Shown: one piece after another, positions 1 through 14,418 of the stretch | Layout of the letters: every line of letters starts with the position of its first letter | Position numbering within the stretch: the first letter of the stretch is position 1 | NCBI GenBank assembly: GCA_964358645.1 | Contig: CAYHPW010000004.1 | Span: 25,889 to 89,888, forward strand | Reading direction: 5' to 3' | DNA length: 64,000 nucleotides | From: an uncultured Bacteriovoracaceae bacterium | Lineage (GTDB): Bacteria > Bdellovibrionota > UBA1018 | Translations under genes and position numbers: made by a program | The notes under the pieces: generated by a model | Database searches by the model: none | What the model saw: only the letters and a program-made list of their open reading frames with translations | What the model was told of the DNA's origin: nothing

Positions 1-722
1 CCAGTCATGCCCCAGGTCTTTCCGAAAGTCCTGACAAGCACTGCACCAGGATCATGCTTTAGCCAACACTCATGCGGATGATCATATGAAAAGTGATCGT
101 AAACCTCGTCTGATATAACCTGCAGCCCTATCCGCCTTGCAGCTTGCGCAAGCGTTGAAATTTCTGCCGCCGTATAAGCAACACCGGTGGGATTCACCGG
201 GGAATTAAAAAGCAGCACTCCAGGACGTCCCTTCTTGGGATGTCCGCGCACTGAGCTAGACGCCGTGGCATTTACAGCACTTTCCAACCTTTCAGCAGTG
301 AACCTAAAATCAGGATAAGTATCGATCCACCTTGGCACTCCGCCAGCCAGACTGATCATATGTCCATAGGTCGCGAAATACGGGTCCGGCACGAATACAT
401 CAGTGCCAGGATCCACCAATGAAAGAAGCGCAAGCACTAGCCCACCGGATCCGCCAGCTACGGCTATCATATCTTCGCTGTGCACTCCTTCTTCTGACAA
501 GCTGGCCCTGATTGCCTCACGGAACTCAGGGACACCTCCTGTCACCGTGTATCTGTTACGTCCTTCTAGAATCGACTTTATAGCAACATCCTTTACCCGC
601 TGTGGAACATCAAAATGAGGTTGACCGAGTGAAAAATCAATCGGGTTTTTCATACTGGCAGCAAGCTCGAACATCTTGCGAACGCCAGAGGCCTCCAGGG
701 ATTTCATTCTTTCAGCAATCAT
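1..722 (-). CDS. PLP-dependent class I/II aminotransferase (partial, 3' end outside window)
   Basis: Minus-strand translation of 1-120 gives VISDEVYDHFSYDHPHESVGLKHDPGAVLVRTFGKTWGMTG, which is the aminotransferase PLP-lysine region (SxSK / FGKTWGMTG). ATG at 722-720 overlaps the upstream stop as ATGA; N-terminus MIAERMKSLEASGVRKMFELA. Confidence 0.8.
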   Translation of the reverse strand, partial: MIAERMKSLEASGVRKMFELAASMKNPIDFSLGQPHFDVPQRVKDVAIKSILEGRNRYTVTGGVPEFREAIRASLSEEGVHSEDMIAVAGGSGGLVLALLSLVDPGTDVFVPDPYFATYGHMISLAGGVPRWIDTYPDFRFTAERLESAVNATASSSVRGHPKKGRPGVLLFNSPVNPTGVAYTAAEISTLAQAARRIGLQVISDEVYDHFSYDHPHECWLKHDPGAVLVRTFGKTWGMT

Positions 723-1528
723 ACAGAATCTCCATGCATCAAGCCGTAAAGCGCCGCTCCTATAGCACCACAATACTGGGCGTCCTTTGCCAAAATTATT
801 TTCTTACCAGGCAGTTGTTTACGAAATATTTTAAGCAATGCTGGATGATAATTCATCACTCCGCCTGAAAAAACAACTTTATCAGAACTGATGACTGTCA
901 TCTCAAGCACTCTTTTTACAACGGACATATAAAGTGCGTGGATCAGATTTTCAACTTTCTCACCTTGCATCAAAATCTTGATGACTTCTTGTCCGGCAAA
1001 TACCGTGCAATAGCTGTTTAACACGAGATCCTTGTCATGCTTCTTCTGAAGTCCTGACATTGCTTCAAGACTGATTTCCAAGCGATGCGCCAGCTCTTCG
1101 ATGTAGGCTCCTGTCCCGGCCGCACATTTGCGGTTCATCACGAAACTTCGTATTTCATCATCATCAGCTTGTATGACCTTGGAGTCCTGCCCGCCTATAT
1201 CTATTATAGTGAACGTTCCAGAGACATCCGTCTGGTGCCTGACACCGATATGGTGTGCTTTTATTTCCGTGAGCCTGTGCGAGGCAAAATTAAGATGATT
1301 CCTTCCGTAGCCAGTAACAGTGATAACATGCCCGTTTCTGACGGTCAGGTCATCACTTTCAAAAGGCGAGTCTGAAAGTGCCCTCTTCACATGCTCTATC
1401 AACGGAAACAGAGTTTTTTGTTTGGTCTTACTGATGATCTTCCCTGACTGATCACACGAGACGACCTTGATTTCTGAACTCCCGCAATCAACACCCCAGT
1501 AATGTTTACGCTTGGTTTTAGCCGCCAT
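719..1528 (-). CDS. BadF/BadG/BcrA/BcrD-type ATPase, HgdC-like activase (archerase) of 2-hydroxyacyl-CoA dehydratase family
   Basis: 269 aa. N-terminal HYWGVDCGSSEIKVV and TIIDIGGQDSKV actin-like ATPase motifs, CAAGTGAYIEE, about 260 aa like HgdC/YjiL. Translationally coupled to neighbours. Confidence 0.8.
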   Translation of the reverse strand: MAAKTKRKHYWGVDCGSSEIKVVSCDQSGKIISKTKQKTLFPLIEHVKRALSDSPFESDDLTVRNGHVITVTGYGRNHLNFASHRLTEIKAHHIGVRHQTDVSGTFTIIDIGGQDSKVIQADDDEIRSFVMNRKCAAGTGAYIEELAHRLEISLEAMSGLQKKHDKDLVLNSYCTVFAGQEVIKILMQGEKVENLIHALYMSVVKRVLEMTVISSDKVVFSGGVMNYHPALLKIFRKQLPGKKIILAKDAQYCGAIGAALYGLMHGDSV

Positions 1529-1538
1529 ATTTGCCCTC

Positions 1539-2726
1539 TTAGATCATCTCCAAAAAGGCCTCTATAAGATTTGTTGCCTGTTCATCCGAAAAACAGCGCA
1601 AATCGCACAGATCGCCATTGATAACCACGGACGGGATCCCATTTCCCCTCAGCCTGCCTGGCAAATTATATTGGCTATTGGTGTTGTTCGGGCAGGTCTT
1701 TGATTCGTGAAATATCACTCCGTCAATCGCGAATTCTTTGATTGTCTTTGAAATATACTTTTCTTTGAAAGAATCGTTTCGATTGATGAAAATTTCAAGA
1801 TAAGCTTTTGCCATGCTGGCGAGTGGATCTGTGGCGTCAAACGCGGAGAAGATCCAGCTATTGCAATAAGTAGACGCAACCACGCAGGCTCGATGTCTCT
1901 GAAAAAGTTCAGATAGATTCCTAAGCCTTCCCCATACCGGCATCCCATCCCAATAAATACGCTTCATTTCTCCATGGACCGAAGCAACACCCGCTTTGAT
2001 TCTCTCCTTCATGTCTTTTAAAAGATGCTTGTAAAATGTCACAGCTTCCTCGGTTCCACGAAGAACCACAATCGGACCCATGAATACGGTGGAGTCAAAG
2101 AAATTAAGTGGGCTTGGTTTATGAGCACCGGTCAATAAAACTTCATTCCATAGATCAGTCGCCTTCTTTGAAAGAGCGACCGTGTGCTTGAGTTTTTCTA
2201 CATCCATCTTTTTTCTGGCCAACGCCTCAAGACGAGCAATTAGATTCTTAAACTGTGCAACCACATCATCTATGTGCCATTTTTCAACATTAGATAAATG
2301 GTTTGGGCTATGTATGCCGATAAGAGGCACATTAAATTTCCTGCTATAAAACTCAAACCAATGCATCACGTCTTTGCACTGGTTCGTATTGTAAACAAGT
2401 ACGTCAGGCCTGGGCACGTTCTTTATGCCGTACGCTTTGGTAAGCGGGGTGACACCTTTCATACACGCGCCGACATCACTTGTAAGATAACTGCATATAT
2501 CAGGTGAATATCCAAGCGCATTGGCTGCTGGAATGGTTTCACCTGACATTCTAGAGGCCCCAAGCATGGCTCCGTGATTTTCTGGAAAGAACACCTCAAA
2601 ATCCATTGCGCGTAAAATTTCAGCCGGCCCGACAGATGTGCACCACGCGACCAGCCTCCGCGGATCCCTCGATGCGGCATCAAGATCCAGGAAGTAACGC
2701 TTCATCACTTCCTTTACATCGCTCAT
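1539..2726 (-). CDS. 2-hydroxyacyl-CoA dehydratase D-component family protein (HgdB/BcrB/C-like), single subunit
   Basis: 395 aa. Shares family architecture with the BcrC/BcrB-like ORFs at 15731-18177 (LVAWCTSVGPAEILRAMDFEVFFPENHGA, Cys-containing ICSYLTSDVGACMKG, DLCDLRCFSDEQA). Paired with the adjacent activase like E. coli yjiM/yjiL. Confidence 0.65.
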   Translation of the reverse strand: MSDVKEVMKRYFLDLDAASRDPRRLVAWCTSVGPAEILRAMDFEVFFPENHGAMLGASRMSGETIPAANALGYSPDICSYLTSDVGACMKGVTPLTKAYGIKNVPRPDVLVYNTNQCKDVMHWFEFYSRKFNVPLIGIHSPNHLSNVEKWHIDDVVAQFKNLIARLEALARKKMDVEKLKHTVALSKKATDLWNEVLLTGAHKPSPLNFFDSTVFMGPIVVLRGTEEAVTFYKHLLKDMKERIKAGVASVHGEMKRIYWDGMPVWGRLRNLSELFQRHRACVVASTYCNSWIFSAFDATDPLASMAKAYLEIFINRNDSFKEKYISKTIKEFAIDGVIFHESKTCPNNTNSQYNLPGRLRGNGIPSVVINGDLCDLRCFSDEQATNLIEAFLEMI

Positions 2727-3721
2727 TGTTTCTCCAGCAATCTTTTTACACAGCGATTAATAAAAACAGCAATCATTTTCTTCTTATATGAAGGCGGGAA
2801 AAATTCCTGCTTAAGCGGTGTAACTGCTTTTGTAACCTCATGGCAAGCATTCAGAAGCATTTCATCAAAACCAACTGATTCATTAGTTGAAAAATTTAAA
2901 AGTACAGGGTGCGTATCCGCTCCACTCACCGCCACTCCCATGGACCATATCCCATGCACATCCGAAAGGCTAACCGCCACGCCAAGCGATGGAAAATCTA
3001 TCGCATTTCTGATCCTAAGTTTTTCGTAAGCTATCCGCTCGTACCGCGGCACGCGGACCTCCACATGTGTCAGAATCTCGCCCTTCTCAAGCCTGTTACG
3101 CTCAATCCCGTCCTTGATATAGAACTCAGCAAGCGGAACATGAATATAGCCGCTCGGCCCAGCGACCGACAAACGCGCATCCATGAGCATAAGCACGGGA
3201 GCAAGATCTGAAACGAAACGGGCCCTACATAAAGGTGCCTTGCCACGGACCGCGTTAGGTATCAAATGGCAAGCTTCACCACCGGATTTGAAGCACTCAC
3301 CGTGAGCCTTCCTGTTTGTCTCACTCTGATTGAAGAATATACAACGATTATTGACAAGAAGGTTCCCACCCGCGGTCGCCCTGTTGCGAATCTGCCTGGT
3401 CGCGACCAGGCTCGCTGCTTCAGAAACGGATGGTAGGAGCTTTCTGACAATGTTATTACCGATCAACTCATCAAGCGTTGTTTGAGAGCCGATGGAAACC
3501 GTTCTCTCATTCCTAAGCGCCACGCCACCAAGCTCCTTGATAGCTGTTAGCGAGATGATCGAGGAAGGGGCTATCAAACGGTTCTTAAGCAAAGGCACCA
3601 AATCAGTGCCACCACTACAAAAATTAAATTCCTCACTATCGGAAGCTAGTTTGCCGGCGATGCCTACCGCTTCATCCAGTGCGGTAGGCCGATAATATCT
3701 AAAGCCCGCCATCAGCGCCAT
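2723..3721 (-). CDS. hcrB: Molybdo-flavoprotein FAD-binding subunit with Cys-rich insertion (4-hydroxybenzoyl-CoA reductase beta, HcrB-like)
   Basis: CoxM/XdhB-like FAD subunit (FNFCSGGTDLVPLLK, ATAGGNL). A four-Cys insertion (C140, C156, C164, C178: NNRC...GEC...EAC...PLC) is typical of the extra [4Fe-4S] loop of HcrB. Start chosen at MALMAGFRYYRP (ATG 3721), one nt after the hcrA stop. Confidence 0.7.
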   Translation of the reverse strand: MALMAGFRYYRPTALDEAVGIAGKLASDSEEFNFCSGGTDLVPLLKNRLIAPSSIISLTAIKELGGVALRNERTVSIGSQTTLDELIGNNIVRKLLPSVSEAASLVATRQIRNRATAGGNLLVNNRCIFFNQSETNRKAHGECFKSGGEACHLIPNAVRGKAPLCRARFVSDLAPVLMLMDARLSVAGPSGYIHVPLAEFYIKDGIERNRLEKGEILTHVEVRVPRYERIAYEKLRIRNAIDFPSLGVAVSLSDVHGIWSMGVAVSGADTHPVLLNFSTNESVGFDEMLLNACHEVTKAVTPLKQEFFPPSYKKKMIAVFINRCVKRLLEKQ

Positions 3722-3722
3722 G

Positions 3723-6167
3723 TTAGCGGCCTCCCTCGCGGACTTTCGAAATCGCCTCAAGAACTTTATCGGGGGTCATCGGCACCGACATGAGCCTGAT
3801 CCCAACAGCATCGTAAATCGCGTTCGCCACGGAGGGCACAAGCGGCGCAAGAGCGCCCTCGCCTACTTCCTTAGCGCCGAAAGGGCCTTCGCTTTCGTCG
3901 CTCCTAGGACAAATGATGTCAATCTTGGGCTGCTCAAAAGGCGATGGGATCTTGTATTCAAGGAACGAAGGATTCTGAATAGCTCCATCGACGTAGTTCA
4001 TGGACTCCATAAGCGCCTGTCCCAAACCCATATGTATCGAACCCTCGATCTGCCCTTCCACCGCAAGCGGATTTATCGGCGTTCCGCAATCATGCGCACA
4101 CGTAACTTTATCAACTTTAACAAAACCAGTATCTGGATCCACGCTCACTTCGGTTATAAACGCGGTAAAGCTGTAACTCGGGCTAAGCCCCGCCCCTGCG
4201 CCCTTGAACTTGCCGCCCATTTTTGGCGAAACATAAATTCCACTAGCTTGAAGGGCACCTCCTTCAAGCGCTTTAGAAACAGCCTCCATGTAACTAATAC
4301 TTTTTCCGCTACCAGAGGCGCTACCAGATGCGCTCACACATCCTATCTTCATGTCCTTGAATATAAACCCATCCGAATAATCCGGATTAGGACCAAGATA
4401 TACGCTGCTGAAATCAGGTTTTCTCCCACCTTGTCTAAAAAAATTCACAGGCTCTTCCGGCCTTTTGTAGACTGGCGGCGGCAATCCCATCAGCTTACAA
4501 GCGGCTTCGGTGAGCGCCTTTCGCATTCTTATAGCGGCATTCCTGGCGGCATTGCCAGCCATGAATGTAACCCGTGAACTGTAACTGCCAAAATCAACCG
4601 GGCAAAGTCGCGTATCCGCGGCAATAATTTTTATCATCGAAAGCGGGATGCCGAGCACCTCTGCCACCATCATCGCTATGACAGTGTCACTGCCCTGGCC
4701 AATGTCAGAGGCACCGGTATAAACCGTCACACCGCCGTCAAAATCTATGGTGAGCCTGACAGTGGACTGAGTCGCCTCGCTCTTGTCCTTACCGCCCTGA
4801 TTGTTCCAAAGTATTGGAAGCGCGCTTCCGCTGATAAAAAAACCGCAGGCAACACCAATGCCTTTTCCGTACGGGAGTTTTCCATGCTTCTCTCCATATT
4901 TTTCTCGCCATCCTGAACGCTCCATCGCGGTCTTAAGGCCCTCTGATAGCCCGCAAGAAGTGATCCTGAACTCATTCGCGGTAATCGTGTTTTCCTGGAG
5001 CAAAAACTTAAGCCTGGCTTCGCACGGATCTATTCCAGCTTTCACGCATGCCATATCAAGCAACACTTCGCTTGCGAAACGTGGGTTCACACCTCCATGG
5101 CCGCGCATGGCCCCACACATCGGCTTATTGGTATATACCCTGTCACATTTAAATGAAAAATTTGGTACCCTGTACGGTCCCTGAAGAAGCACGCCATTGT
5201 AATACGAGGTCACCACACCGAAGCTGCCATATGCCCCGCCGTCAATCAGTGCCTCAGTCTCCAGTGCTGTGATGCCGCATTCAGGATGAAGCCCAAGCTT
5301 CATTTTAATCTCAGTCGGGTGCCTGCCATGATTTGTGAAAAAAACTTCCTCACGCGAGAGCGCTAGTTTTGTATTCCTACCGGTCATAAGCGCGAGCTTC
5401 GCGCATATCATCTCATGGCCAAATGGATCGCTCTTGCCGCCGAAGCCACCACCGAGAAAAGGCTTCACTACCCTGATTCGGTGAAGCGGGAACTCAAGAA
5501 CTTCCGACAAAGCAATATGAAGATAATGCGGCACCTGAGTCGATGAATAGACCGTGAGATCGCCGCTTCCGTCGATTTCCACTTGTGTGGCATGCGGTTC
5601 TGTAAAAGCATGATTGAGTGGTTTAAATTCAAAACTGCCTTCAACCACGGCGCTGGCATTCTTGAATCCTTCACTCATGTCACCAAACTGCTGATGCGCG
5701 GATTTGTGAAGATTTGTATCCCGTTTAAGTTCAGGATGTATAGTGGACCCTGTTTTTTCAAGAGCCTGCCTTGAATCCAGGCACGGCTTGATGTCAGTGT
5801 ACTTCACATATATCAAGCGCATGGCTTCTTCCGCGGCTTTGGCATTTTCGGCCGCGACCGCTGCCACAGGCTCACCTATGTACCTCACAACGTCCTTCGC
5901 TATCGCTGGCTCATCCTTGCTGATCGGTAAAACGCCAAACGTGTTTTTAAAATCCTTCCCGGTGATAGCGGCCTTAACACCCGGAAACCGTTCTGCCAGC
6001 GTGGTGTCTATCTCCTTAATCTTCGCGCTTGCACGCGTTGAGCGCAGGATCCTTACGATCAACGGATTATGTAGAACAATATCGTCAGTGTACTGGGCGC
6101 GGCCCGTCACTTTATCAAGTGATCCGAGACATGGAGTAGGTTTTCCTATGACATTGTATCCGCTCAT
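3723..6167 (-). CDS. hcrA: Xanthine-dehydrogenase-family molybdopterin-binding large subunit (4-hydroxybenzoyl-CoA reductase alpha, HcrA-like)
   Basis: About 815 aa. N-terminus MSGYNVIGKPTPCLGSLDKVTGRAQYTDD, GGGFGGK motif, and the GAMRGHG active-site region. Start set at ATG 6167, preceded by GAGGAAG RBS; the ORF track gives a longer 6233 start. Confidence 0.8.
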   Translation of the reverse strand: MSGYNVIGKPTPCLGSLDKVTGRAQYTDDIVLHNPLIVRILRSTRASAKIKEIDTTLAERFPGVKAAITGKDFKNTFGVLPISKDEPAIAKDVVRYIGEPVAAVAAENAKAAEEAMRLIYVKYTDIKPCLDSRQALEKTGSTIHPELKRDTNLHKSAHQQFGDMSEGFKNASAVVEGSFEFKPLNHAFTEPHATQVEIDGSGDLTVYSSTQVPHYLHIALSEVLEFPLHRIRVVKPFLGGGFGGKSDPFGHEMICAKLALMTGRNTKLALSREEVFFTNHGRHPTEIKMKLGLHPECGITALETEALIDGGAYGSFGVVTSYYNGVLLQGPYRVPNFSFKCDRVYTNKPMCGAMRGHGGVNPRFASEVLLDMACVKAGIDPCEARLKFLLQENTITANEFRITSCGLSEGLKTAMERSGWREKYGEKHGKLPYGKGIGVACGFFISGSALPILWNNQGGKDKSEATQSTVRLTIDFDGGVTVYTGASDIGQGSDTVIAMMVAEVLGIPLSMIKIIAADTRLCPVDFGSYSSRVTFMAGNAARNAAIRMRKALTEAACKLMGLPPPVYKRPEEPVNFFRQGGRKPDFSSVYLGPNPDYSDGFIFKDMKIGCVSASGSASGSGKSISYMEAVSKALEGGALQASGIYVSPKMGGKFKGAGAGLSPSYSFTAFITEVSVDPDTGFVKVDKVTCAHDCGTPINPLAVEGQIEGSIHMGLGQALMESMNYVDGAIQNPSFLEYKIPSPFEQPKIDIICPRSDESEGPFGAKEVGEGALAPLVPSVANAIYDAVGIRLMSVPMTPDKVLEAISKVREGGR

Positions 6168-6183
6168 TAGCGCTTCCTCGAAT

Positions 6184-6693
6184 TCACGGCGAATCACTGG
6201 CCCGCATTTTTTTTGCAGCTTCCGCGACCGCATTCTCTATCTTCGTGTAACCGGTGCACCTACACACAGTGCCGGAAACACATTCCTTTATTTCTTCTTG
6301 TGAAGGATCCTTGTTTTCCTCCAGTAAATTGACAGCATTTAAAACCATGGCAGGCGTACAAAACCCGCATTGTATGGCGCCGGATGCGATCATTGATTCC
6401 TGCACCGGATGAAGCGAACCATCTTTTGCCACGCCTTCTATGGTCGTCACCTTCCTGCCATTTACTTCACAAGCAGGTAAAATACATGACAGTACCGGCT
6501 TCCCATCCAGAAGAACGCTGCAACACCCGCAATCACCGGTGTCACAGCCGCGCTTGACGCCAGTCAATTTAAGCTCATCTCTTAACATCTCAAGAAGTGT
6601 GGTTTCCGGCAAAACAGCACGGGCCATTTTAACGCCGTTCACCTCGATGTTAATAAGCTGCAACCGGCTTTGATCTGATGATTTATTCCTCAT
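6184..6693 (-). CDS. hcrC: [2Fe-2S]-binding small subunit of molybdo-enzyme (HcrC-like)
   Basis: GCDTGDCGCCSVLLDG and CGFCTPAMV ferredoxin-type and second 2Fe-2S motifs. Start placed at MRNKSS...INIEVNGVKM, since the track ORF begins further upstream inside the thiolase 3' region. Order C-A-B as in Thauera hcrCAB. Confidence 0.75.
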   Translation of the reverse strand: MRNKSSDQSRLQLINIEVNGVKMARAVLPETTLLEMLRDELKLTGVKRGCDTGDCGCCSVLLDGKPVLSCILPACEVNGRKVTTIEGVAKDGSLHPVQESMIASGAIQCGFCTPAMVLNAVNLLEENKDPSQEEIKECVSGTVCRCTGYTKIENAVAEAAKKMRASDSP

Positions 6694-6704
6694 ATTTATG
6701 GATT

Positions 6705-7886
6705 CTACCCCATGCGCCTCACAAGAGTCGCAACCCCTTGCCCGTGTCCGACACACATCGCTGTCACTCCGAATTCTTTATCGGTGCTTTCAAGAACATT
6801 GATCAATGTAGTGATTAAGCGCGTACCGGTGCACCCGAGTGGATGCCCAAGAGCGATAGCCCCTCCAAAGAGGTTGACTCTATCCTCTGAAATCTCAAGC
6901 TCACGCATGCATGCGATCGCCTGGGATGCGAATGCCTCATTCAGTTCAAAAACATCGATATCATTTACTTTAAAACCAGAGCGACCGAGAAGTTTTTGTA
7001 TCGCTGGAACGGGACCCATCCCCATAAGACAAGGATCAATACCAACGACCGCGTAATCCAAGATCTGCGCTCTCGCCTTTGCGCCAGTTCTTCTAAGCCC
7101 ATCCGCCGATAAAAGCGTAGTCAGACTGGCGCCGTCACTAAGCGGCGAGCTATTGCCAGCCGTGACCGTGCCGTTTTCTTTGAAGCTGCTCTTCAAAGCT
7201 AAAAGCGTCTCTATGTTTGTATCGGCACGAGGGAGCTGATCTTTTGAAAAAACACCATCAGGCGTAGTCACTGGGATTATCTCTCTGGCAAAGTGACCTT
7301 TGCTTTGTGCCTCAAGTGCCTTTTTGTGGCTTCGAAACGCGAACTCATCCTGCTCGCGCCTGCTGATGCCATAAACCTCGGCGACTTTTTCTGCAGTGAG
7401 CCCCATATTGTTAAAAGGGAATTCATACCGGCCAAGAAGCTCCTGGTTATAATCCAGCGCGGCCGCCATGGGCACGTGATGCATGTGTTCTACGCCGCCA
7501 GCTAAAATAATATCAGCATCACCACGGTCAAGCGTCATCGCGGCGAAATTAAGCGCCTGAAGACTGGATGCGCATAGCCTGTTGATAGTCACGCCTGGCA
7601 CTCTATCAGGCAGGCCGGCAAGCAAAGATGAAAGTCTAGCGATGTTCTTGCCCTGTTCCAGATGCTGACCAACGCAACCGATAAATACGTCATCAATAGC
7701 ATCTGGTGACACTGCTTTTGTCGTTGCTGCTTTTGTCGTTGCTGCTTTTGTCGTTGCTTCTTTTATGAGCATGGCAATGAGCGCATCCGCCCTTACGTTT
7801 CTTAAAGCACCCTTCTCAGGATGTGAACGACCTATCGCTGTCCTTCTTGCATCCACTACAAATGCATTTAGAAATTTTTTTTCCAC
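6705..7886 (-). CDS. Acetyl-CoA C-acyltransferase (thiolase)
   Basis: 393 aa. Active-site Cys motifs: NRLCASSLQAL, GHPLGCTGTRL, CVGHGQG. Contains an in-frame tandem repeat encoding TTKAA x3. Confidence 0.85.
   Translation of the reverse strand: MEKKFLNAFVVDARRTAIGRSHPEKGALRNVRADALIAMLIKEATTKAATTKAATTKAVSPDAIDDVFIGCVGQHLEQGKNIARLSSLLAGLPDRVPGVTINRLCASSLQALNFAAMTLDRGDADIILAGGVEHMHHVPMAAALDYNQELLGRYEFPFNNMGLTAEKVAEVYGISRREQDEFAFRSHKKALEAQSKGHFAREIIPVTTPDGVFSKDQLPRADTNIETLLALKSSFKENGTVTAGNSSPLSDGASLTTLLSADGLRRTGAKARAQILDYAVVGIDPCLMGMGPVPAIQKLLGRSGFKVNDIDVFELNEAFASQAIACMRELEISEDRVNLFGGAIALGHPLGCTGTRLITTLINVLESTDKEFGVTAMCVGHGQGVATLVRRMG
7712..7769. repeat. 15-bp tandem repeat (ctgcttttgtcgttg) x3 plus a degenerate fourth copy, in frame inside the thiolase CDS
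   Basis: Three perfect copies at 7712-7726, 7727-7741 and 7742-7756, followed by cttcttttatgag. The encoded peptide is ATTKAATTKAATTKAV. Confidence 0.9.
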
Positions 7887-7900
7887 CTACATTCCTCCCT

Positions 7901-8665
7901 TTAAAGCGACAAAATACCGCAGCTCTTGCCACCATCCACATGGAGCACCTGGCCCGTTATGAACCCAGCTTCCTCGGAAGCTAGAAAGGTAACCGCCGCA
8001 GCGATGTCATCAACACTGCCCATTTTGCCGGTGGGTTGCATCTTAAGCAGGCGTTCCCTTGCTTTGTCAGACATCCCTCTGGTCATTGGCGTATCAATCA
8101 GACCGGGCGCAACAGCGTTCACGTTTATATTGTAACGGGCGAACTCAAGCGCAAGTGTCTTTGTCAGGCTGACCATGCCACCCTTGCTTGCAGAATAATT
8201 GCTCTGGCCTATATTGCCAAGCCATGACCGCGACGTGATATTAACGATCTTTCCGCTAAGCCTTGCCTGCATGGCAGGGAATACGGCTTGGCAAAGCAAA
8301 AAAGCCCCCTTTAAGTTGACATTGATAACTGCGTCCCAGTCTTCCTCCGAAATGGATGATATAAATCCATCACGGATGATACCGGCGTTATTCACAAGAA
8401 CGTCTAGTTTGCCGAATTTTTTTAAAATGGATCCCACCACAGCCGTCACGTCATCTTTTTTAGCGACATCCCCGGTGAATGCAAACATCTGCTCTTTGCT
8501 ATTACCCTTAAAGCTACTGGCAGTAGCTTTAAGGGCCGCGCTGTCCATATCTATGAGCGCCACACTAGCGCCAAGACTTGCAAAACGTCCTGCTATCCCA
8601 GCACCAATCCCTTGCGCCGCTCCGGTGACGGCAACCACCTGACCTGAAAAATCACAGCATTTCAT
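7901..8665 (-). CDS. Short-chain dehydrogenase/reductase (3-oxoacyl reductase / 3-hydroxyacyl-CoA dehydrogenase type)
   Basis: 254 aa. VAVTGAAQGIGAGIA Rossmann motif, NNAG, and the S...YSASK catalytic triad pattern. Confidence 0.8.
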   Translation of the reverse strand: MKCCDFSGQVVAVTGAAQGIGAGIAGRFASLGASVALIDMDSAALKATASSFKGNSKEQMFAFTGDVAKKDDVTAVVGSILKKFGKLDVLVNNAGIIRDGFISSISEEDWDAVINVNLKGAFLLCQAVFPAMQARLSGKIVNITSRSWLGNIGQSNYSASKGGMVSLTKTLALEFARYNINVNAVAPGLIDTPMTRGMSDKARERLLKMQPTGKMGSVDDIAAAVTFLASEEAGFITGQVLHVDGGKSCGILSL

Positions 8666-8695
8666 AGTACCTTTCCTGATACCTCTCTGAAAACT

Positions 8696-9970
8696 TCACG
8701 CGACTTCAACAGCCATGGCAATGCCCTGCCCGCCTCCAATGCATGCCGAGACAATACCTAAGCGTCCATTCCTACGCTTAAGTTCTTTAAGGCACGTAGT
8801 TGCCAGCCTGCAACCAGAAGCAGCAAGCGGATGACCGATTGCAATCGCGCCGCCATTCACGTTTAGTTTGCTTAAATCCAGCTCGAGCTCCCTTGCTACG
8901 GCCAAGCACTGCGCGCCAAAGGCTTCGTTGATTTCAAACAAATCAATATCCTTCAATCCAAGCCCAAGCTCTGACAACAATGACCGGATTGCTGGAGCAG
9001 GACCGATGCCCATGATGCTAGGCTCTACACCAACCGAGACACAACCTAAAATTCTACCAATCGCTTTCAGCCCGTGCGCTTTGATGTACTCACCTGAAGC
9101 CGCCAGCACCGCACATGCACCATCTACAATCCCAGACGCGGATCCGGCAGTGGTAGGCCCTTCCTTGGTGAAAACAAACGGAAGGCTCCCTAGTTTTTCA
9201 AGCGTTGTCATGCGGGGATGCTCATCAGATTCAATCCCATCACTGCCTTTAAGACGGTACTTGCGCGGCTTGAGGCCAGAGCGTTCCAAAATACCTTCTT
9301 TTGAAACCTTTATCACCTCATTACTGAATACCCCTTTTTTCTGGGCGTTTGAGTATTTTTCCTGGCTTGAAATGGCGAACTCATCCACCTCCCGCCTGCC
9401 AAGCTTATACTCACGTGCAAGATTATCAGCGGTATGGCCCATGGGTACAGCGGCGGTATCATTCAACGCCTCCCATAGAAGGTCGACGAACCCTGGCTTA
9501 CCGAGCTGAAAACCTTGTCTGCCGTCAAACGACACAAGCGGAAATTTGCTCATCGTATCAGTCCCGCAACAAAGCACCAGCCTGCTCTTACCAAGCGCGA
9601 TCTGCTCCGCGGCCAGCCCGATTATTTCGATGCCGGAACCACAGATCCTTTGAGCGAGAAGGGCCGGGCTTTCAAGCGGCGCGCCGGAATAAATGCCAAT
9701 ATGCCTTGGCAGAAAAAAAGCATCAGCGCTTGATTGCCCGATATTCGCGACGATCGTCTGATCCACTTCGGAACCCGGGACACCCGCCGCCTCAAGCACC
9801 GCTCTAGACGACAAAATACCGAGGTCAGTGGGCGACAGCGTCGAGAGAGTACCGCAGTACTTGCCAAACGGCGTACGCCTACCTTCCACAATATAAATCC
9901 CTTCAAAAAGAGTCCCTAATCCATTCTTTTTTGATCCAAAACCACGAGCACCAGTTTTCATAATATTCAC
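8696..9970 (-). CDS. Thiolase-family acyl-CoA acetyltransferase (second copy)
   Basis: 424 aa. Motifs: RICGSGIE, NVNGGAIAIGHPLAASGCRL, CIGGGQGIAM. Confidence 0.8.
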   Translation of the reverse strand: MNIMKTGARGFGSKKNGLGTLFEGIYIVEGRRTPFGKYCGTLSTLSPTDLGILSSRAVLEAAGVPGSEVDQTIVANIGQSSADAFFLPRHIGIYSGAPLESPALLAQRICGSGIEIIGLAAEQIALGKSRLVLCCGTDTMSKFPLVSFDGRQGFQLGKPGFVDLLWEALNDTAAVPMGHTADNLAREYKLGRREVDEFAISSQEKYSNAQKKGVFSNEVIKVSKEGILERSGLKPRKYRLKGSDGIESDEHPRMTTLEKLGSLPFVFTKEGPTTAGSASGIVDGACAVLAASGEYIKAHGLKAIGRILGCVSVGVEPSIMGIGPAPAIRSLLSELGLGLKDIDLFEINEAFGAQCLAVARELELDLSKLNVNGGAIAIGHPLAASGCRLATTCLKELKRRNGRLGIVSACIGGGQGIAMAVEVA

Positions 9971-10914
9971 CTCCCGGAAAATACGAATTTTTCTTTTTTA
10001 AGGATGCCACTAAGACCGACCATGGCATCATCCGTGTTAAAAACCCATTTCAACGACCCGAGCTCCAGCTTCAACCCCTCATCGAGCGTGGCTTCTAGTC
10101 CGCGGTCAACAAGCTCCATTGCTTTCTTGAGCGCAAGCGGGGCCTTCCTTCTTAAAGCCTTCTCATAAATATGAAATATATCATTAGATAAAACCGTGTC
10201 ATTAAGTTCACCGGTAAAACTATAAAAAGCATTTTCAGGAAATAAGTCATTATAACTCCCAGGGGACTTCCCTGCCTGTGGATTAATGTCCTCTGGCAAT
10301 TCACACAACTCTTCAACACTCTCGAATGGTCCAGCCAACATATCAACTAGACCATACTTAAGCGCCATCTGCGCATCCACGAACTGTCCGGTGGCTATCA
10401 TAAACTTTGCCAGGCCTTTGCCGATCAGCCTCGGCGCTCTCTGCGTGCCTCCGAGGCCTGGATAGATGCCTATCCCGGTTTCTGGGAAGGCCAGCAAGGC
10501 TTTCGGGCTTGCAACCCTCCTGTGACATGCGAGTGCGAGTTCAAGTCCTCCACCCAGTGTCAGCCCGTTCAAGTAAGCGATAGCAGGTTTTTTGCAAGCG
10601 CTTACTTTGTTAAGGACATCATGTCCATAAGTAGTGAAGCGGTAAATCCTATCAATATCTCCTCTATCCATCGCATCGACAAAGAACTTGATATCGGCGC
10701 CAGCGACAAACGCCTTCCCACGGCCAAGTATGAATATGCGTTTAACGCTGGGATCACGTTCAAGCTTCTCGAAGTTCATGGCAAATTGCTCGACAACATC
10801 CTCACTGAGAGGATTCATCTTCTCAGGGATGTTGAAAATAACAAACCCGTTATGGTGATAGATATCGGAGACTACACAATCGATCTTAATCTTTTCGCTA
10901 CACTCATTCATCAT
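9967..10914 (-). CDS. Enoyl-CoA hydratase/isomerase (crotonase) family protein
   Basis: 315 aa. GKAFVAGADIKFF and LNGLTLGGGLELALACHRRVA crotonase signature. Confidence 0.75.
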   Translation of the reverse strand: MMNECSEKIKIDCVVSDIYHHNGFVIFNIPEKMNPLSEDVVEQFAMNFEKLERDPSVKRIFILGRGKAFVAGADIKFFVDAMDRGDIDRIYRFTTYGHDVLNKVSACKKPAIAYLNGLTLGGGLELALACHRRVASPKALLAFPETGIGIYPGLGGTQRAPRLIGKGLAKFMIATGQFVDAQMALKYGLVDMLAGPFESVEELCELPEDINPQAGKSPGSYNDLFPENAFYSFTGELNDTVLSNDIFHIYEKALRRKAPLALKKAMELVDRGLEATLDEGLKLELGSLKWVFNTDDAMVGLSGILKKEKFVFSGR

Positions 10915-10943
10915 TTTAAATATTCCTAGTTAAATATTCCTGG

Positions 10944-11885
10944 TTAAATGGTCCTTGTAAAATCATCTTCAATGCTCTTTAAAAAACCATAAACTGTTTC
11001 GGTAACAGGAACACGCATGCCGCTGTTTTCCGCATACTGCACGAGCTTTCCACAATGATAGTCATTCTCGGTCCTGCGCCTGTTTTCAATATCGACAAGC
11101 ATTGATGGTTTGTGATCGCCGCCACTGGATAAATAGCTCATAGCTTCGTTAAAAAAACCTGCACCAATTGCGATTTTTCTGACTTTAGCGATGCTTATCC
11201 CTTCCCGGACGATCTCCTCCACTATTCTTTTCAGAAACGGCCTATCGAGCACCGCCTTCATCGTCATTCCGGTAAGCGCGCAAACACTTGACAATGAGGA
11301 ATTTAAAATCGCCTTTCTGAAGATATCAGGCTGGTAATCTTCCTTGAGATCCGTCTTGAATCCTGCTGACGTCAGGTCCATGGCAACTTGCCTGGTCAAG
11401 GCCATATTTACGTCAATTCTCAATGAAAGGATTTGCGGGAAGATAAACGTGACATTGACCTCATTTTCACCAATAAGCGAACAACCAAGGTTCATCACCA
11501 TTCTAAGAGCGTTCTGCGATCCAAAGACATTGATGATCTGTTCTTCAACCCCCAACCCGTTCTGGCATGAAACAAAAACAGTTTTTTTGTCAAACTTAGC
11601 GCTTTGCTTGATGGTTTGAAGTATCGCCGGTGAATCACAACTCTTTGTCGCGATAAAAATCACATCAGGCTTGGTCTCCAAAAAGCTTTCCATCTGCATA
11701 TGCAGATTTCCAAACTTGGCATGCGCGGAGAGCTTTCCTTTCACAACAAGCGGACCACTGGCGAGTGCAGTATATTTGGCTTCATATCCGCATAGTATAG
11801 CTAAGTCATGACCGGCCTGTGCCAGATGAACTGCGATGGTGGAGCCCACAGGGCCCATGCCGATTATTGCGTACATGAGTCTCAT
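10944..11885 (-). CDS. Ketopantoate-reductase (ApbA/PanE) family NAD(P)-dependent oxidoreductase
   Basis: 313 aa. N-terminal Rossmann MYAIIGMGPVGSTIAVHLAQAGHDLAIL and KPR-like C-terminal domain. Its role in the pathway is uncertain. Confidence 0.6.
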   Translation of the reverse strand: MRLMYAIIGMGPVGSTIAVHLAQAGHDLAILCGYEAKYTALASGPLVVKGKLSAHAKFGNLHMQMESFLETKPDVIFIATKSCDSPAILQTIKQSAKFDKKTVFVSCQNGLGVEEQIINVFGSQNALRMVMNLGCSLIGENEVNVTFIFPQILSLRIDVNMALTRQVAMDLTSAGFKTDLKEDYQPDIFRKAILNSSLSSVCALTGMTMKAVLDRPFLKRIVEEIVREGISIAKVRKIAIGAGFFNEAMSYLSSGGDHKPSMLVDIENRRRTENDYHCGKLVQYAENSGMRVPVTETVYGFLKSIEDDFTRTI

Positions 11886-13564
11886 TTGCGCCTCACACTC
11901 TCAGCGGCCAACTCGACCACATATATATTGCCAGGGAGCTCATTAATCCTGTCAACTTCCAGTGAATGCATGAAAGTCCTGAAGTTCTCCTCAATCCTTT
12001 TCGGAATAAGTTTGAAGGACGGGGTCAGTTCATTTCTCTCGATGGTAAGCTCGGTATCGACGATCATCACCTTCTGGACGCGGTCTATTTTTCCACACGC
12101 TGTGTGATTCACATCCACGATACACTTGCCAAGACAGCGCGCAAACTCATTAAGACACGCCGGGAAACTGCAACCAGAACCACCACACTCACCGCTTCGC
12201 GCGGCCTCGATGAGCTCCGTGTTCGGAAAAATTATCGCAAGCGGATTACTCTGGCCCTGGCCAAACACGTAAGCATGCTTGATGAACCTGCACTTTGCCT
12301 TAAGGTTTTCCTCTATCACGGACGGAAAAATTTTCTCGCCATTGCTGAGTTTGAACATCCTGTCTTTTCGTGAAATTATTCTTAACCCGTCCTCGGTTAT
12401 TTCGCCGATATCACCGGTTTTAAACCAGCCTTCATTGTCTAAAACCCTGGCGGTGGCTTCCGGCTGCTTGAAGTAGCCCTTCATCACATTAGGCCCACGG
12501 ACCAAAATCTCATTCTCCTCGCCGATCTTGACTTCCACGCCAGGCATTGGGAACCCAACCACGCCAAGCTTCCTGTCCACATCCATGCTGGTCAGGGTAC
12601 AGCACGGGGATGTCTCCGTAAGCCCCCAACCCTCTATGACAGGGACTTTCTTAGCTTTAAATATTTCCGATGTACTTAAAGGAAGTGGCGCAGCAGCCGT
12701 AAAAATGAATTTAAGCCCGTCATGAAAAAAACCACGCTCAACAGCCTTTGACGACGCCATTCTGGCGGTGATCTCCTGGTAAATTTTAGGCACGCTGAAA
12801 AATATATTTGGCTTAATCTCAAGGTAGTTTTCAAGCAGCTTGTCCACGTTCTTACCGCCTGAATCATCCACCGCAAGGCAGCCGCCGGAACTAAGCGCGA
12901 AGAACCGCTCAAACAGCCCGCCAAAGCTGTGGTGCCAAGGCAGGTAGCATAAAAATCTCATCCCCGGCTCAGGGGCCCAGAGTATCTTAAGCGCCTTTTG
13001 CTGTGACATGAGATTTGCGTGTGTGAGCTGTACCCCCTTTGGTGAACCACTTGTCCCGGAAGTGAACATGATCACGGCTAGACTATCGTCATCAACGCCG
13101 GTCATTACATGTTCAATGTCACCGCCTGGAGTATATTTCGTCATGTCATCAAAAAACCGTAAGTCAAAAACCAGCGGCACATCCGCGGCATCATAACGGT
13201 AGCCATCCACTACAACAGCACTTACATCAGAGAATTTTATCAGCTCGCAAATAAGACCTTTCGAGTAGCCCGCGAAAACAGGCACACTAGTCATCCCTGA
13301 GCTCATAACCGCAAGTTCCGCCACAAGCCTTCTATATGAATTGCCAGCCAGAAATGCCACACGATCACCGGGCTTAAGCCCTTTTCCTGTCAAGAATCGG
13401 ATCACCCCGGTCACATCACTGATCAGCTCATTCCACATCCAATATTTATATTTACCACTTACTTTTTCGGCAAATGCTGGCATGTGACCGTGACATTCGC
13501 TGTTACCCAGCAACATTGTTCCGATATTTTTCTTAATCACGCCAAGAGACAGGTCGCACCTCAT
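11882..13564 (-). CDS. AMP-dependent acyl-CoA synthetase/ligase (aromatic or alicyclic acid-CoA ligase candidate)
   Basis: 560 aa. AMP-binding signature FTSGTSGSPKGV and the GWGLTE motif. ATGA overlap with bcrD-like stop. Confidence 0.8.
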   Translation of the reverse strand: MRCDLSLGVIKKNIGTMLLGNSECHGHMPAFAEKVSGKYKYWMWNELISDVTGVIRFLTGKGLKPGDRVAFLAGNSYRRLVAELAVMSSGMTSVPVFAGYSKGLICELIKFSDVSAVVVDGYRYDAADVPLVFDLRFFDDMTKYTPGGDIEHVMTGVDDDSLAVIMFTSGTSGSPKGVQLTHANLMSQQKALKILWAPEPGMRFLCYLPWHHSFGGLFERFFALSSGGCLAVDDSGGKNVDKLLENYLEIKPNIFFSVPKIYQEITARMASSKAVERGFFHDGLKFIFTAAAPLPLSTSEIFKAKKVPVIEGWGLTETSPCCTLTSMDVDRKLGVVGFPMPGVEVKIGEENEILVRGPNVMKGYFKQPEATARVLDNEGWFKTGDIGEITEDGLRIISRKDRMFKLSNGEKIFPSVIEENLKAKCRFIKHAYVFGQGQSNPLAIIFPNTELIEAARSGECGGSGCSFPACLNEFARCLGKCIVDVNHTACGKIDRVQKVMIVDTELTIERNELTPSFKLIPKRIEENFRTFMHSLEVDRINELPGNIYVVELAAESVRRK

Positions 13565-14418
13565 GCCGATTCTCCTGCTGACATGGCTTCACGCCCGCCT
13601 CGTATTTTTACGTGCCTGAATCCCGCCCAAAGCGCCGCTCCTATTGCTCCTGCAAAGACAGACTTATCATGACTGAAAATTTCAAGCCTTTGCTTGTCAT
13701 TATTAGCCAGCTCCTGCATTGCCTTAATCATGCCGATATCCTGTGCCAAACCACCGGTGATCAGCGCGCGCCCTTCGGCCTTAAGTACCCTAAGAAGGTT
13801 GATGAGTCTGCGTGCCATCGACAGATGAATGCCCTTTAAGATGTTTGCCGTTGTTATGCCCCTGCTCACCATATTGATTACATCGGTTTCAGCCAGCACC
13901 GCGCATATCCCGGACACCATTTCAGGCTTGTCAGCCTTGCTCGATAGCTCACCTATGTCTTCCGTCGCCACGCCAAGATACCGCGCGATGTTTTCGAGGA
14001 ACTGCCCGGAGCCGGACGCACATTGCGACGTCATCCTGTATGAGAGCACCTTGGAGCGATCATCAACGACCATCACCTTTGCGTGTAGGGCACCGATGTC
14101 AACCACGGCGCGGGCACTGCTATCTAGGAATAAAGCCCCCCTCGCATGGCAAGTCATCGAATAAAAATGCCCTTTACGGAAATCAACCATCTCACCTTCG
14201 CCGGTGCTCGCAACATATGCCACGCCATCTCGACGCATACCTTGCTGCTCCAAAACCCTGTCGAATAATTCATTAATAACATCCTTGGTGTTGCGCTTTC
14301 TGATCTTTTCGATCTCGCAGCCAAGAAGAGTTTCTGACTTTCCTAAATCATCAAAACTCATTGCGGCTGCTTTTATTGCGCTGGAACCGACATCCATACC
14401 GATAGTGTAAAACATCAC
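13561..14418 (-). CDS. bcrD: Benzoyl-CoA reductase class I subunit D-like (BadG/BcrD ATPase)
   Basis: 285 aa (BcrD about 30 kDa). YTIGMDVGSSAIKAA and CASGSGQFLE actin-fold ATPase/[4Fe-4S]-bridging Cys motifs. Final gene of a C-B-A-D order. Confidence 0.75.
   Translation of the reverse strand: MMFYTIGMDVGSSAIKAAAMSFDDLGKSETLLGCEIEKIRKRNTKDVINELFDRVLEQQGMRRDGVAYVASTGEGEMVDFRKGHFYSMTCHARGALFLDSSARAVVDIGALHAKVMVVDDRSKVLSYRMTSQCASGSGQFLENIARYLGVATEDIGELSSKADKPEMVSGICAVLAETDVINMVSRGITTANILKGIHLSMARRLINLLRVLKAEGRALITGGLAQDIGMIKAMQELANNDKQRLEIFSHDKSVFAGAIGAALWAGFRHVKIRGGREAMSAGESA

Follow-up and report, generated by a model that had tools for sequence, protein, structure and literature searches.

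A lone HGD-D-family protein and its ATPase, a possible aryllactyl-CoA dehydratase, at the end of a predicted aromatic-catabolism operon in an uncultured Bacteriovoracaceae bacterium

We analyzed a stretch of 64,000 nucleotides (nt) from the genome of an uncultured Bacteriovoracaceae bacterium (contig CAYHPW010000004.1, positions 25,889 to 89,888), referred to here as the window. Near one of its ends, three genes for a molybdenum enzyme similar to the 4-hydroxybenzoyl-coenzyme A (CoA) reductase HcrCAB are followed by a single gene of the HGD-D family, to which the 2-hydroxyacyl-CoA dehydratases belong, and by a gene for an HgdC/BcrAD-type ATPase. The last two genes, the HGD/ATPase pair, are the main subject of this work. 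Pfam searches and direct reading of the sequence confirm the five genes that an earlier note on this DNA had placed between 719 and 6693, all on the minus strand (Table 1). The set does not end at 719, as that note had it, because the operon runs on into an aminotransferase gene and past the window end. The translational coupling through ATGA overlaps that had been described for these genes is found where the HcrB stop meets the HGD start (2726-2723) and where the ATPase stop meets the aminotransferase start (722-719), but the remaining junctions are spacers, of 16 nt between HcrC and HcrA, 1 nt between HcrA and HcrB, and 10 nt, with a GAGGG Shine-Dalgarno site, between HGD and the ATPase. The HcrA-like gene starts with the ATG at 6167, preceded by the Shine-Dalgarno sequence GAGGAAG, and the ATG of the HcrC-like gene, at 6693, lies 11 nt past a thiolase stop.

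Upstream, the same strand codes for a long series of genes of aromatic and acyl-CoA metabolism. Between 21834 and 1, neighboring genes are never more than 30 nt apart, and the five genes are therefore the tail of an array of 20 genes and ~21.8 kb, with the order had-oah-dch-tetR-bcrCBAD, CoA ligase, ApbA-type reductase, hydratase, thiolase, SDR, thiolase, hcrCAB, HGD, ATPase, and aminotransferase. We predict that they are the distal part of one long operon for anaerobic aromatic catabolism. A scan of the array (21834 to 1) for promoter-like and terminator-like sites gave no excess over shuffled sequences and no intergenic signal.

Table 1. Genes of the 20-gene array, with their coordinates in the window and the matches on which the assignments are based (scores in bits, followed by the model cut-off).
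Gene or product	Coordinates	Strand	Evidence
HcrC-like [2Fe-2S] small subunit, 169 aa	6184..6693	minus	Pfam Fer2_2 + Fer2
HcrA-like molybdopterin subunit, 814 aa	3723..6167	minus	Pfam Ald_Xan_dh_C, MoCoBD_1, MoCoBD_2
HcrB-like FAD subunit, 332 aa	2723..3721	minus	Pfam FAD_binding_5; four-Cys [4Fe-4S] loop
Lone alpha-type HGD-D family iron-sulfur protein, 395 aa	1539..2726	minus	PF06050, E=1e-65
HgdC/BcrAD-type ATPase, 269 aa	719..1528	minus	PF01869, E=2e-40
Class-I/II aminotransferase, 5' part, truncated by window end	1..722	minus	Direct sequence reading
had	20761-21834	minus	Pfam; TIGR03201 430, above 339
oah	19618-20739	minus	Pfam; TIGR03200 540, above 464
dch	18830-19612	minus	Pfam; TIGR03189 212, below 292.5
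tetR-family regulator	18146-18826	minus	Pfam
bcrCBAD, Thauera-type class I benzoyl-CoA reductase	13561..18177	minus	NCBIfam equivalogs
AMP-forming acyl-CoA ligase, 560 aa	11882..13564	minus	Pfam AMP-binding + AMP-binding_C_3
ApbA/PanE-family NAD(P)H ketoreductase, 313 aa	10944..11885	minus	Pfam ApbA + ApbA_C; TIGR00745 153, above 141
Enoyl-CoA hydratase, 315 aa	9967-10914	minus	Pfam ECH_1/2
First thiolase	8696-9970	minus	Pfam Thiolase_N/C
SDR	7901-8665	minus	Pfam adh_short
Second thiolase	6705-7886	minus	Pfam Thiolase_N/C

The molybdenum enzyme consists of three subunits of the xanthine dehydrogenase family ([2Fe-2S], Mo-pterin, and FAD), and its Pfam domains follow each other in the gamma-alpha-beta order of hcrCAB, as had been noted before. 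The HcrB-specific cysteine insertion was recognized correctly as well, since the alignment of the HcrB-like protein with 1rm6_B (E=2e-48) is full-length and shows all four Cys of the beta insertion to be kept (NNRC..GEC..EAC..PLC in the window versus DTRC..GYC..DKC..DRC in Thauera). The HcrA-like protein scores 570 bits to 1rm6_A versus 251 for the next structure. 4-Hydroxybenzoyl-CoA reductase is the top-scoring NCBIfam family for both the alpha and the beta subunits, with scores under the equivalog cut-offs (TIGR03194, 784 versus 994.55; TIGR03195, 226 versus 404.55; and, for the third model, TIGR03193, 154 versus 257.8). Within the HcrA-like proteins, a sharply bounded subclade of ~88 members shares 61-71% identity, the next level being ~52%, and at least 19 of its members have an HGD homolog on their contig. 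A Gly/Ser-rich insertion of ~57 amino acids (aa), absent from the HcrA of Thauera, is carried by the window protein; a 12-nt tandem repeat of 2.3 copies inside the gene (4307-4334) encodes the SGSASGSASG part of it.

These similarities suggest that the enzyme is a new subclade of the known 4-hydroxybenzoyl-CoA reductase. Like HcrCAB of Thauera aromatica (PDB 1RM6; also HbaBCD and PcmRST), it has three subunits in gamma-alpha-beta order, a four-Cys beta loop, and a place in a benzoyl-CoA operon. Unlike them, its subclade shows only ~52% identity to canonical Hcr-type proteins, with sub-cut-off scores and the alpha insertion, and its genes regularly follow a ligase/beta-oxidation block and often precede the HGD/ATPase pair. 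Another difference is the fusion of the gamma and alpha subunits in some members, seen as a [2Fe-2S]-HcrA protein of 977 aa in locus L171 (10001-12934) and likewise in the ~980-aa subclade proteins P0127, P0130, P0140, and P0150. If the enzyme works as its relatives do, low-potential electrons would enter via the extra [4Fe-4S] loop, and the para-hydroxyl of 4-hydroxybenzoyl-CoA would be removed to give benzoyl-CoA, the substrate of the BcrCBAD enzyme encoded upstream.

The 395-aa protein matches the HGD-D model, as had been supposed, and has the cluster-binding cysteines of the family. C78, C117, and C345 are the alpha-type [4Fe-4S] ligands (BzdO C95/C128/C380), and both these and the catalytic Glu (E49, equivalent to HadB E55 and BzdO E65) are 100% conserved in an alignment of 210 sequences. 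Its best solved relative by sequence is the HadB alpha subunit (3o3m_A; E=3e-51, 29% identity), followed by MbdO and BzdO, and in a search with the family profile the double-cubane cluster proteins (DCCPs) and the beta-type subunits rank far behind these three. An AlphaFold2 model of the protein (pLDDT 84, pTM 0.86), compared by Foldseek, gives the same order of groups, with TM-scores of 0.89 to HadB, 0.87 to BzdO, 0.85 to MbdO, 0.76 to the DCCP 6ENO, and 0.67-0.73 to beta-type subunits. The HadB-like motifs W-x-T-S-V-x-P and P-E-N are present, and their versions here, WCTSVGP and FPENHGA, are nearer to those of HadB (WSTSVFP and YPENQAA) than to those of any benzoyl-CoA reductase (BCR) subunit. 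Its fold and motifs thus point to a substrate-binding (alpha-type) subunit and not to a mere electron carrier. The sequence is of the alpha type that forms cluster III of Jeoung et al., and not of the beta-type-related cluster IV (PMC7317905).

All NCBIfam scores of the protein are low, with 225 to HadB (cut-off 750), 161 and 71 to the BCR equivalogs TIGR02260 and TIGR03191 (cut-offs 487 and 449), and 73 to the double-cubane model NF040772 (cut-off 350). Its identity to the window's own BcrB is 28%. It stands outside each of the three characterized groups, as it has no beta partner (dehydratase), no four-subunit setting and no BCR proton-relay His or Trp (BCR), and an incomplete 7-Cys motif with a low model score (DCCP), yet it plainly belongs to the superfamily that they share.

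Beyond the three ligands, C29 (100%), C288 (99%), and C378 (97%, lost in 7 of the 210 sequences) are also conserved. In the BCR subunit BzdN, the [8Fe-9S] double cubane is bound by C36, C73, C100, C263, C293, and C327 (PMC11971306). Five of these six positions are Cys in the 395-aa family, in which C29 corresponds to C36, C78 to C73, C117 to C100, C288 to C263, and C345 to C327, while the sixth (BzdN C293) is Asn or Arg. C29, within vawCtsvgPaE, aligns with BzdN C36 (vatmCtytPEE) and the first DCCP ligand, and C288 aligns with a ligand of both DCCP and BzdN (eetCigery / ddqCsgsry); HadB has Ser and Pro and the window BcrB has Thr and Thr at these two positions. C378 has no counterpart in HadB or DCCP. 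Two further BzdO residues differ too in the sequence alignment, as the proton-relay His131 is replaced by Val120 and Trp46 by an invariant Gly33. In the model, all six Cys lie at the C-terminal ends of beta-strands and face the inter-domain cleft. Confidence is lowest in those loops that contain C288, C345, and C378, as is expected of cofactor-dependent loops. The family looks, from its sequence, like an intermediate between the homodimeric double-cubane proteins and the BzdO/HadB type, and it may hold one cubane or two, which is the main source of doubt on the chemistry of the pair.

The ATPase belongs to the activase family, in agreement with the earlier note, and it passes the acyl-CoA dehydratase activase model TIGR00241 with 183 bits (cut-off 125). 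Its matches among solved structures are MbdQ (131 bits), HadI (112), and HgdC (108), and it is an ordinary member of its family. We fetched 162 non-redundant loci with homologs of the 395-aa protein and scored their stop-to-stop open reading frames against the window proteins by BLASTP or phmmer. Exactly one reading frame of the HGD-D family was found in the fetched flanks of 160 of them (phmmer E<1e-3, alpha- and beta-type queries), and the two exceptional loci contain a complete BCR elsewhere in the locus. The single HGD-D subunit that had been noted in the window is therefore a general trait, and as no second HGD-D gene accompanies the first, the catalytic protein is probably a homodimer.

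An HGD-D gene alone with one ATPase gene is also the arrangement of DCCP/DCCP-R from Carboxydothermus (PDB 6ENO and 7YYL) and of Escherichia coli YjiM/YjiL, and the likeness extends to the presumably homodimeric architecture and to the Cys at 5/6 cluster-ligand positions. It differs from DCCP in that, besides the low NF040772 score and TM-score, the sequence alignment covers the C-terminal half only, and the 7-Cys motif CX19CX18-19CX29CX166-170CX32-34CX32C is incomplete and differently spaced. The idea of a radical enzyme pair of the YjiL/YjiM type recruited into aromatic catabolism, one of two put forward before, is thus upheld in general terms, with a lone gene, its own ATPase, and neighbors for benzoyl-CoA, arylpyruvate, and CoA-activation chemistry, but strict membership in YjiM/DCCP is not, the protein being nearer to HadB.

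The pair is widespread. Among species-level genomes, at least 579 encode a homolog of the 395-aa protein with 55-72% identity, and the same lower bound holds for metagenome stretches. Neighbors were counted in the 68 of the 162 loci that extend 5 kb or more to either side, the ATPase within 1.5 kb and all other genes within 10 kb. The ATPase is adjacent to the HGD gene in 67/68, and some CoA-activating enzyme is found in 47/68. An ApbA-type reductase is present in 24 loci, an IorAB-type 2-oxoacid:ferredoxin oxidoreductase (arylpyruvate type) in 18, a PaaK-type ligase in 15, had in 11, and oah in 8. A large subunit of the Hcr type was found in 7/68, distributed as 5/12 in the clade with 62-72% identity and 2/56 in the rest. 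The CoA-activating enzymes belong to three non-homologous types, namely the AMP-forming ligase of the window's clade, an ADP-forming synthetase, and a CoA-transferase. Orthologs of the window ligase (at least 45% identity) occur in 10/12 well-flanked high-identity loci, making this ligase the constant partner of the pair in that clade, and an ADP-forming acyl-CoA synthetase of ~700 aa lies directly downstream of the pair in 22/56 low-identity loci.

Individual loci show in which combinations these genes come. Locus L087, with 71% identity the closest among the matches listed, has the order bcrAD, ligase, 3HCDH/ECH, thiolase, SDR, thiolase, HGD, ATPase, and aminotransferase, which is the window operon minus hcrCAB and ApbA. 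Its full-length ortholog of the aminotransferase (Aminotran_1_2, aspartate/aromatic-type models) directly follows the ATPase and is translationally coupled to it; two genes further on, at 13729-15360, lies a bona fide urocanate hydratase, hutU (903 bits). The opposite case is seen in a 2.2-Mb contig of a member of the Bdellovibrionaceae (L170) and in a 249-kb JGI contig, which have ligase, (ApbA), 3HCDH/ECH, thiolase, SDR, and hcrCAB and no pair. L171 brings all modules together, with the ligase and ApbA reductase fused into one protein of 910 aa (2014-4746), while L090-L094 (of which L093 was inspected) are stand-alone operons of the four genes ligase-ApbA-HGD-ATPase. A full class I BCR is found in the same operon in the window, L087, L008, and L171.

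The genes flanking the pair elsewhere are diverse. Directly after it, L002 has a small ferredoxin, a two-subunit 2-oxoacid:ferredoxin oxidoreductase, a 4HBT thioesterase, and a MobA-like nucleotidyltransferase (12068-16281), plausibly a local supply of reduced ferredoxin and Mo cofactor. A few genes downstream of ATPase-HGD-ACD, L045 (14187-15896) and L018 (15877-17532) code for tannase/feruloyl-esterase and BD-FAE-like carboxylesterase, which hints at phenolic-acid esters as upstream substrates in some lineages.

Ligase, ApbA reductase, beta-oxidation block, Hcr, pair, and aminotransferase thus behave as freely combining modules, which argues against a dedicated electron module for Hcr. The survey does bear out a linkage of the pair to related hcr loci, which had been anticipated, but this linkage is facultative in both directions. 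In this comparison, the pair appears as an autonomous two-gene family, independent of Hcr, and a function in feeding Hcr is not supported.

Regarding the upstream part of the array, three subunits of the Thauera-type BCR lie above their NCBIfam cut-offs (BcrC, 557 versus 421; BcrB, 704 versus 487; and BcrD, 334 versus 313), and BcrA, with 546, is just under its cut-off of 578. The tetR-family gene is located between dch and bcrC on the same strand and has a 32-nt overlap with the annotated bcrC start. NCBIfam gives merely generic names to the aminotransferase, the ApbA protein, the SDR, the thiolases, the hydratase, and a divergent acyl-CoA dehydrogenase. The ligase does not reveal a substrate, as its NCBIfam matches are generic (long-chain and FadD11-like only) and it has no close solved relative, the best PDB matches being malonyl-CoA and feruloyl-CoA synthetases with 113 bits.

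The beta-oxidation block (6705..10914) keeps an identical gene order in related loci, at 59-69% identity. The hydratase of the window does not have the N-terminal 3-hydroxyacyl-CoA dehydrogenase domain that is fused to it in L002, L003, L087, L088, L170, and L171 (~665 aa in total), and the dehydrogenase step in the window may be supplied by the SDR or the ApbA-type protein. Two tandem repeats lie in this region. One, inside the second thiolase gene (7712-7764), has 3.5 copies of a 15-nt unit with 97% matches and encodes an (ATTKA)3-like insertion near the N-terminus, EATTKAATTKAATTKAVS. The other, at 10916-10949, consists of 2.4 copies of the 14-nt unit TTAAATATTCCTAG, which fill the 29-nt spacer between the ApbA and hydratase genes and extend into both gene ends.

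Taking gene content and order, family assignments, cofactor-binding residues, and co-occurrence statistics together, we infer a substrate, a dehydratase (and not reductase) chemistry, and the steps of a pathway for the pair, in addition to its homodimeric state. Our preferred reading, to which we assign a probability of roughly 0.45, is that the pair is an ATP-primed, probably homodimeric aryllactyl-CoA dehydratase that channels 2-hydroxy acids derived from Tyr and Phe via beta-oxidation to 4-hydroxybenzoyl-CoA, Hcr, and BCR. Within the BCR-I/2-hydroxyacyl-CoA-dehydratase superfamily, the two proteins would form a self-contained radical enzyme. Its ATPase, a homodimer bridged by a [4Fe-4S] cluster, would use ATP hydrolysis to send one low-potential electron into the cluster of the catalytic protein, which would act on the CoA thioester made by the co-encoded ligase. 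By ketyl-radical dehydration, (R)-4-hydroxyphenyllactyl-CoA or phenyllactyl-CoA would give p-coumaroyl-CoA or cinnamoyl-CoA.

In the complete route, the aminotransferase would convert Tyr or Phe to the arylpyruvate, the ApbA-type reductase would reduce this to the aryllactate, the ligase would form aryllactyl-CoA, and the HGD protein with its ATPase would produce the enoyl-CoA. Hydratase, SDR, and thiolase would then yield (4-hydroxy)benzoyl-CoA and acetyl-CoA, Hcr would provide benzoyl-CoA, and BCR, Dch, Had, and Oah would carry on the benzoyl-CoA pathway. The scheme gives a role to every gene of the window operon, and under it Hcr becomes an optional insert, present for 4-hydroxyphenyl substrates and absent in L087. 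The coupled aminotransferase, the IorAB and PaaK neighbors, and the had, dch, oah, BCR, and Hcr markers indicate that the substrate is probably aromatic.

There are precedents for several of these steps. In the clostridial route, a 2-oxo acid is reduced to an (R)-2-hydroxy acid, which is activated to its CoA ester and dehydrated to the enoyl-CoA, and the phenyllactate dehydratase FldBC of Clostridium sporogenes, with FldI, carries out the same chemistry as that proposed here (cited in PMC13416013). The ApbA/PanE family includes D-2-hydroxyacid dehydrogenases, and BbsCD/BbsAB are a precedent for an SDR and a thiolase acting on a benzylic 3-hydroxyacyl-CoA. By analogy, the ApbA neighbors, the stand-alone ligase-ApbA-HGD-ATPase operons, and the L171 fusion match the input side of the clostridial dehydratase pathways. 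As in HadBC/HadI of Clostridioides difficile (PDB 3O3M) and FldBC/FldI, a separate gene for an HgdC-type ATPase lies beside the HGD gene, the 395-aa protein has the three [4Fe-4S] Cys together with the catalytic Glu and both motifs of HadB, and a 2-oxo acid reductase and an enzyme for CoA activation come from neighboring genes. Unlike in those systems, there is a single gene and no beta subunit, the identity is 29%, and two or three additional Cys are conserved; CoA activation proceeds via ligases or ADP-forming synthetases and no family III CoA-transferase. The setting differs too, as the pair sits in the respiratory/oxidative benzoyl-CoA catabolism of Proteobacteria-like metagenome-assembled genomes and not in Stickland fermentation.

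Several points weigh against a dehydratase. The function and substrate of the pair are deduced solely from genomic context, and, to our knowledge, the characterized 2-hydroxyacyl-CoA dehydratases are all alpha/beta heterodimers, so that a homodimeric one would be unprecedented. C29 and C288 are invariant at the positions of the distal-subcluster ligands of BzdN and DCCP, with Gly in place of BzdO Trp46, and a double cubane would, by analogy, block the Fe site to which the thioester carbonyl binds in HadB, pointing to reductase chemistry. The ATPase has a slightly closer relative in MbdQ, a BCR subunit, than in HadI or HgdC, and in several operons the pair immediately follows bona fide had and dch genes and no BCR is in view. 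The lower benzoyl-CoA pathway, from 3-hydroxypimeloyl-CoA to acetyl-CoA, could by itself account for the beta-oxidation block. Last, the input side of the scheme is not constant, as L087 has no ApbA reductase, L170 has ApbA and lacks the pair, and the aminotransferase is found in only 1/68 other well-flanked loci.

Part of this evidence would suit a second explanation, the main rival of the first though in our view doubtful, namely that the pair is a minimal ATP-dependent aryl-CoA reductase, made of a homodimeric alpha-type protein with a double-cubane-like cluster and a homodimeric ATPase. It would dearomatize a substituted benzoyl-CoA (e.g., 3-hydroxybenzoyl-CoA) or carry out a reductive dehydroxylation, standing in for the four-subunit class I BCR in some lineages and complementing BcrCBAD and Hcr for substituted rings in the window. 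Five strictly conserved Cys on 5/6 [8Fe-9S] ligand positions of BzdN/DCCP are what such an enzyme would need, and the Trp46 that Gly33 replaces is the residue that occupies the site of the lost distal subcluster in BzdO. The homodimeric DCCPs act as reductases, the top solved match of the ATPase is a BCR subunit, and the identity to the window BcrB is on par with that to HadB. In the (iorAB-)had-dch-ATPase-HGD-(ADP-forming CoA synthetase) operons, which have no BCR within 10 kb, Had scores 461-598 (cut-off 339) and Dch 414-460 (cut-off 292.5), well above the equivalog cut-offs. One carrier of a had-dch-ATPase-HGD operon is Geothermobacter hydrogeniphilus HR-1 (locus L063). The Dch proteins beside the pair in L102 and L026 reach these 414-460 bits on TIGR03189, compared with 212 for the window Dch.

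Other features fit a reductase poorly. With a full class I BCR already in the operon of the window, L087, L008, and L171, a second dearomatizing enzyme needs an ad hoc substrate. The sixth ligand position is non-Cys, its substitute C378 is lost in 7/210 members, and the proton-relay His is Val. HadB outscores BCR and DCCP both in NCBIfam (225 versus 161 versus 73) and in TM-score (0.89 versus 0.85-0.87 versus 0.76), and the ligase-ApbA-HGD-ATPase operons, the ligase-ApbA fusion, and the coupled aminotransferase are better accommodated by a 2-oxo/2-hydroxy acid route. Compared with the class I BCRs themselves (BzdNOPQ, PDB 8S02; MbdONPQ, PDB 9G87/9GAI; and Thauera BcrCBAD), the pair shares the superfamily, the company of had, dch, and oah, and the BzdN-like Cys positions, and it differs in having two genes instead of four, a sub-cut-off BcrB score, the exchanges of His131 and Trp46, and a separate, genuine BcrCBAD encoded in the operon of the window.

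A more far-reaching form of the reductase explanation, which we regard as unlikely, would make the 395-aa family the missing link of the BCR-I/HAD superfamily. Its members would be homodimeric, substrate-binding-type proteins with a variant double cubane that, together with one homodimeric ATPase, reduce aryl-CoA, as a two-gene minimal benzoyl-CoA-type reductase or a meta-dehydroxylase. Anaerobic Proteobacteria-like lineages would commonly possess such an enzyme, encoded immediately behind had and dch in their operons.

A quite unlikely alternative is that the pair, as a 2-hydroxyacyl-CoA dehydratase, acts on a non-aromatic or hydroaromatic alpha-hydroxy acid and lies near Hcr and BCR because the later steps are shared. 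The candidate reactions would be 2-hydroxyglutaryl-CoA to glutaconyl-CoA, a 2-hydroxy fatty acyl-CoA to the enoyl-CoA, and quinoyl-CoA to shikimoyl-CoA. The HadB-like fold and motifs would serve such substrates equally well, the neighboring 3HCDH/ECH fusion and FadA-like thiolase are generic beta-oxidation enzymes, the ligase falls in the long-chain/FadD11-like adenylate-forming group, and the aminotransferase, nearest to aspartate-type models, would yield 2-oxoglutarate. The lower benzoyl-CoA pathway itself passes through glutaconyl-CoA and crotonyl-CoA, and some loci, such as those in Desulfomonile/Syntrophales contexts (DUF4178, spermidine synthase, and P5C reductase), are without any aromatic genes. 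The recurrent specific neighbors, though, are the aromatic markers IorAB, PaaK, Had, Dch, Oah, Hcr, and BCR, and among the annotated recurrent neighbor clusters we found no glutaconate CoA-transferase, glutaconyl-CoA decarboxylase, or other markers of glutamate, fatty-acid, or quinate catabolism. Glutamate and fatty acids as substrates leave Hcr unexplained, and quinate leaves the thiolase unexplained. Quinoyl-CoA dehydration had been considered for the feruloyl-esterase/tannase genes near the pair in L045 and L018 and was set aside because it accounts for neither the thiolase nor the aminotransferase. Mandelyl-CoA, with the IorAB-like genes as phenylglyoxylate oxidoreductases, was rejected, as the chemistry would run in the non-catabolic direction.

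Very improbable is the other proposal of the earlier note, an ATP-driven electron pump made of the HGD-D protein and the ATPase that would feed the [4Fe-4S] loop of Hcr in place of the ferredoxin/2-oxoglutarate:ferredoxin oxidoreductase system that supplies Hcr in Thauera: the order hcrCAB-HGD-ATPase is fixed where both occur, with the HcrB stop overlapping the HGD start, at least 19 contigs with the Hcr subclade (61-71% identity, with the insertion) also carry an HGD homolog, and double-cubane-like cysteines could hold a very low-potential cluster, but the pair occurs without Hcr in 61/68 well-flanked loci and in L087, the Hcr subclade occurs in the same kind of operon without the pair (L170 and the JGI contig), the protein folds like a substrate-binding alpha-type subunit and its catalytic Glu is invariant, what constantly accompanies the pair is an enzyme of CoA activation and no redox enzyme, and the ferredoxin and oxidoreductase genes after the pair in L002 would be a normal electron supply for Hcr and activases.

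Far from the array, the window contains a second molybdenum enzyme of the xanthine dehydrogenase family, with a 733-aa large subunit followed by three open reading frames (58929-63236, plus strand). Upstream of it, on the minus strand, are genes for MoeA and a MOT1-type molybdate transporter (53048-55418), and an NnrS protein is encoded at 57710-58861.

For Tyr and Phe, the established route in denitrifiers runs via phenylacetyl-CoA and phenylglyoxylate. Our literature searches turned up no lone HGD-D/ATPase pair with a link to hcrCAB, and no oxidative phenyllactyl-CoA route except for a speculative scheme in a 2026 study of anaerobic benzene degradation, which postulates a step from phenyllactyl-CoA to cinnamoyl-CoA (PMC13416013). 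Geobacter metallireducens has no HGD-D catalytic genes (PMC1924859).

If the pair is the aryllactyl-CoA dehydratase that we favor, it would be the first 2-hydroxyacyl-CoA dehydratase with only one kind of catalytic subunit and would open a new oxidative anaerobic route from tyrosine, phenylalanine, and aryllactates to benzoyl-CoA, besides offering an enzyme type for the step postulated in the benzene study (PMC13416013). If it is a reductase, it would represent a new and much simpler class of ATP-dependent aryl-CoA reductases. The Hcr subclade coupled to a side-chain beta-oxidation block would be a useful marker in metagenomes for the anaerobic degradation of 4-hydroxyphenyl-C3 acids. Either way, the 395-aa proteins form an uncharacterized family, present in at least 579 species genomes and with a Cys pattern halfway between the double-cubane proteins and HadB/BzdO, that is of clear interest for the fields of radical FeS enzymes and anaerobic aromatic catabolism.

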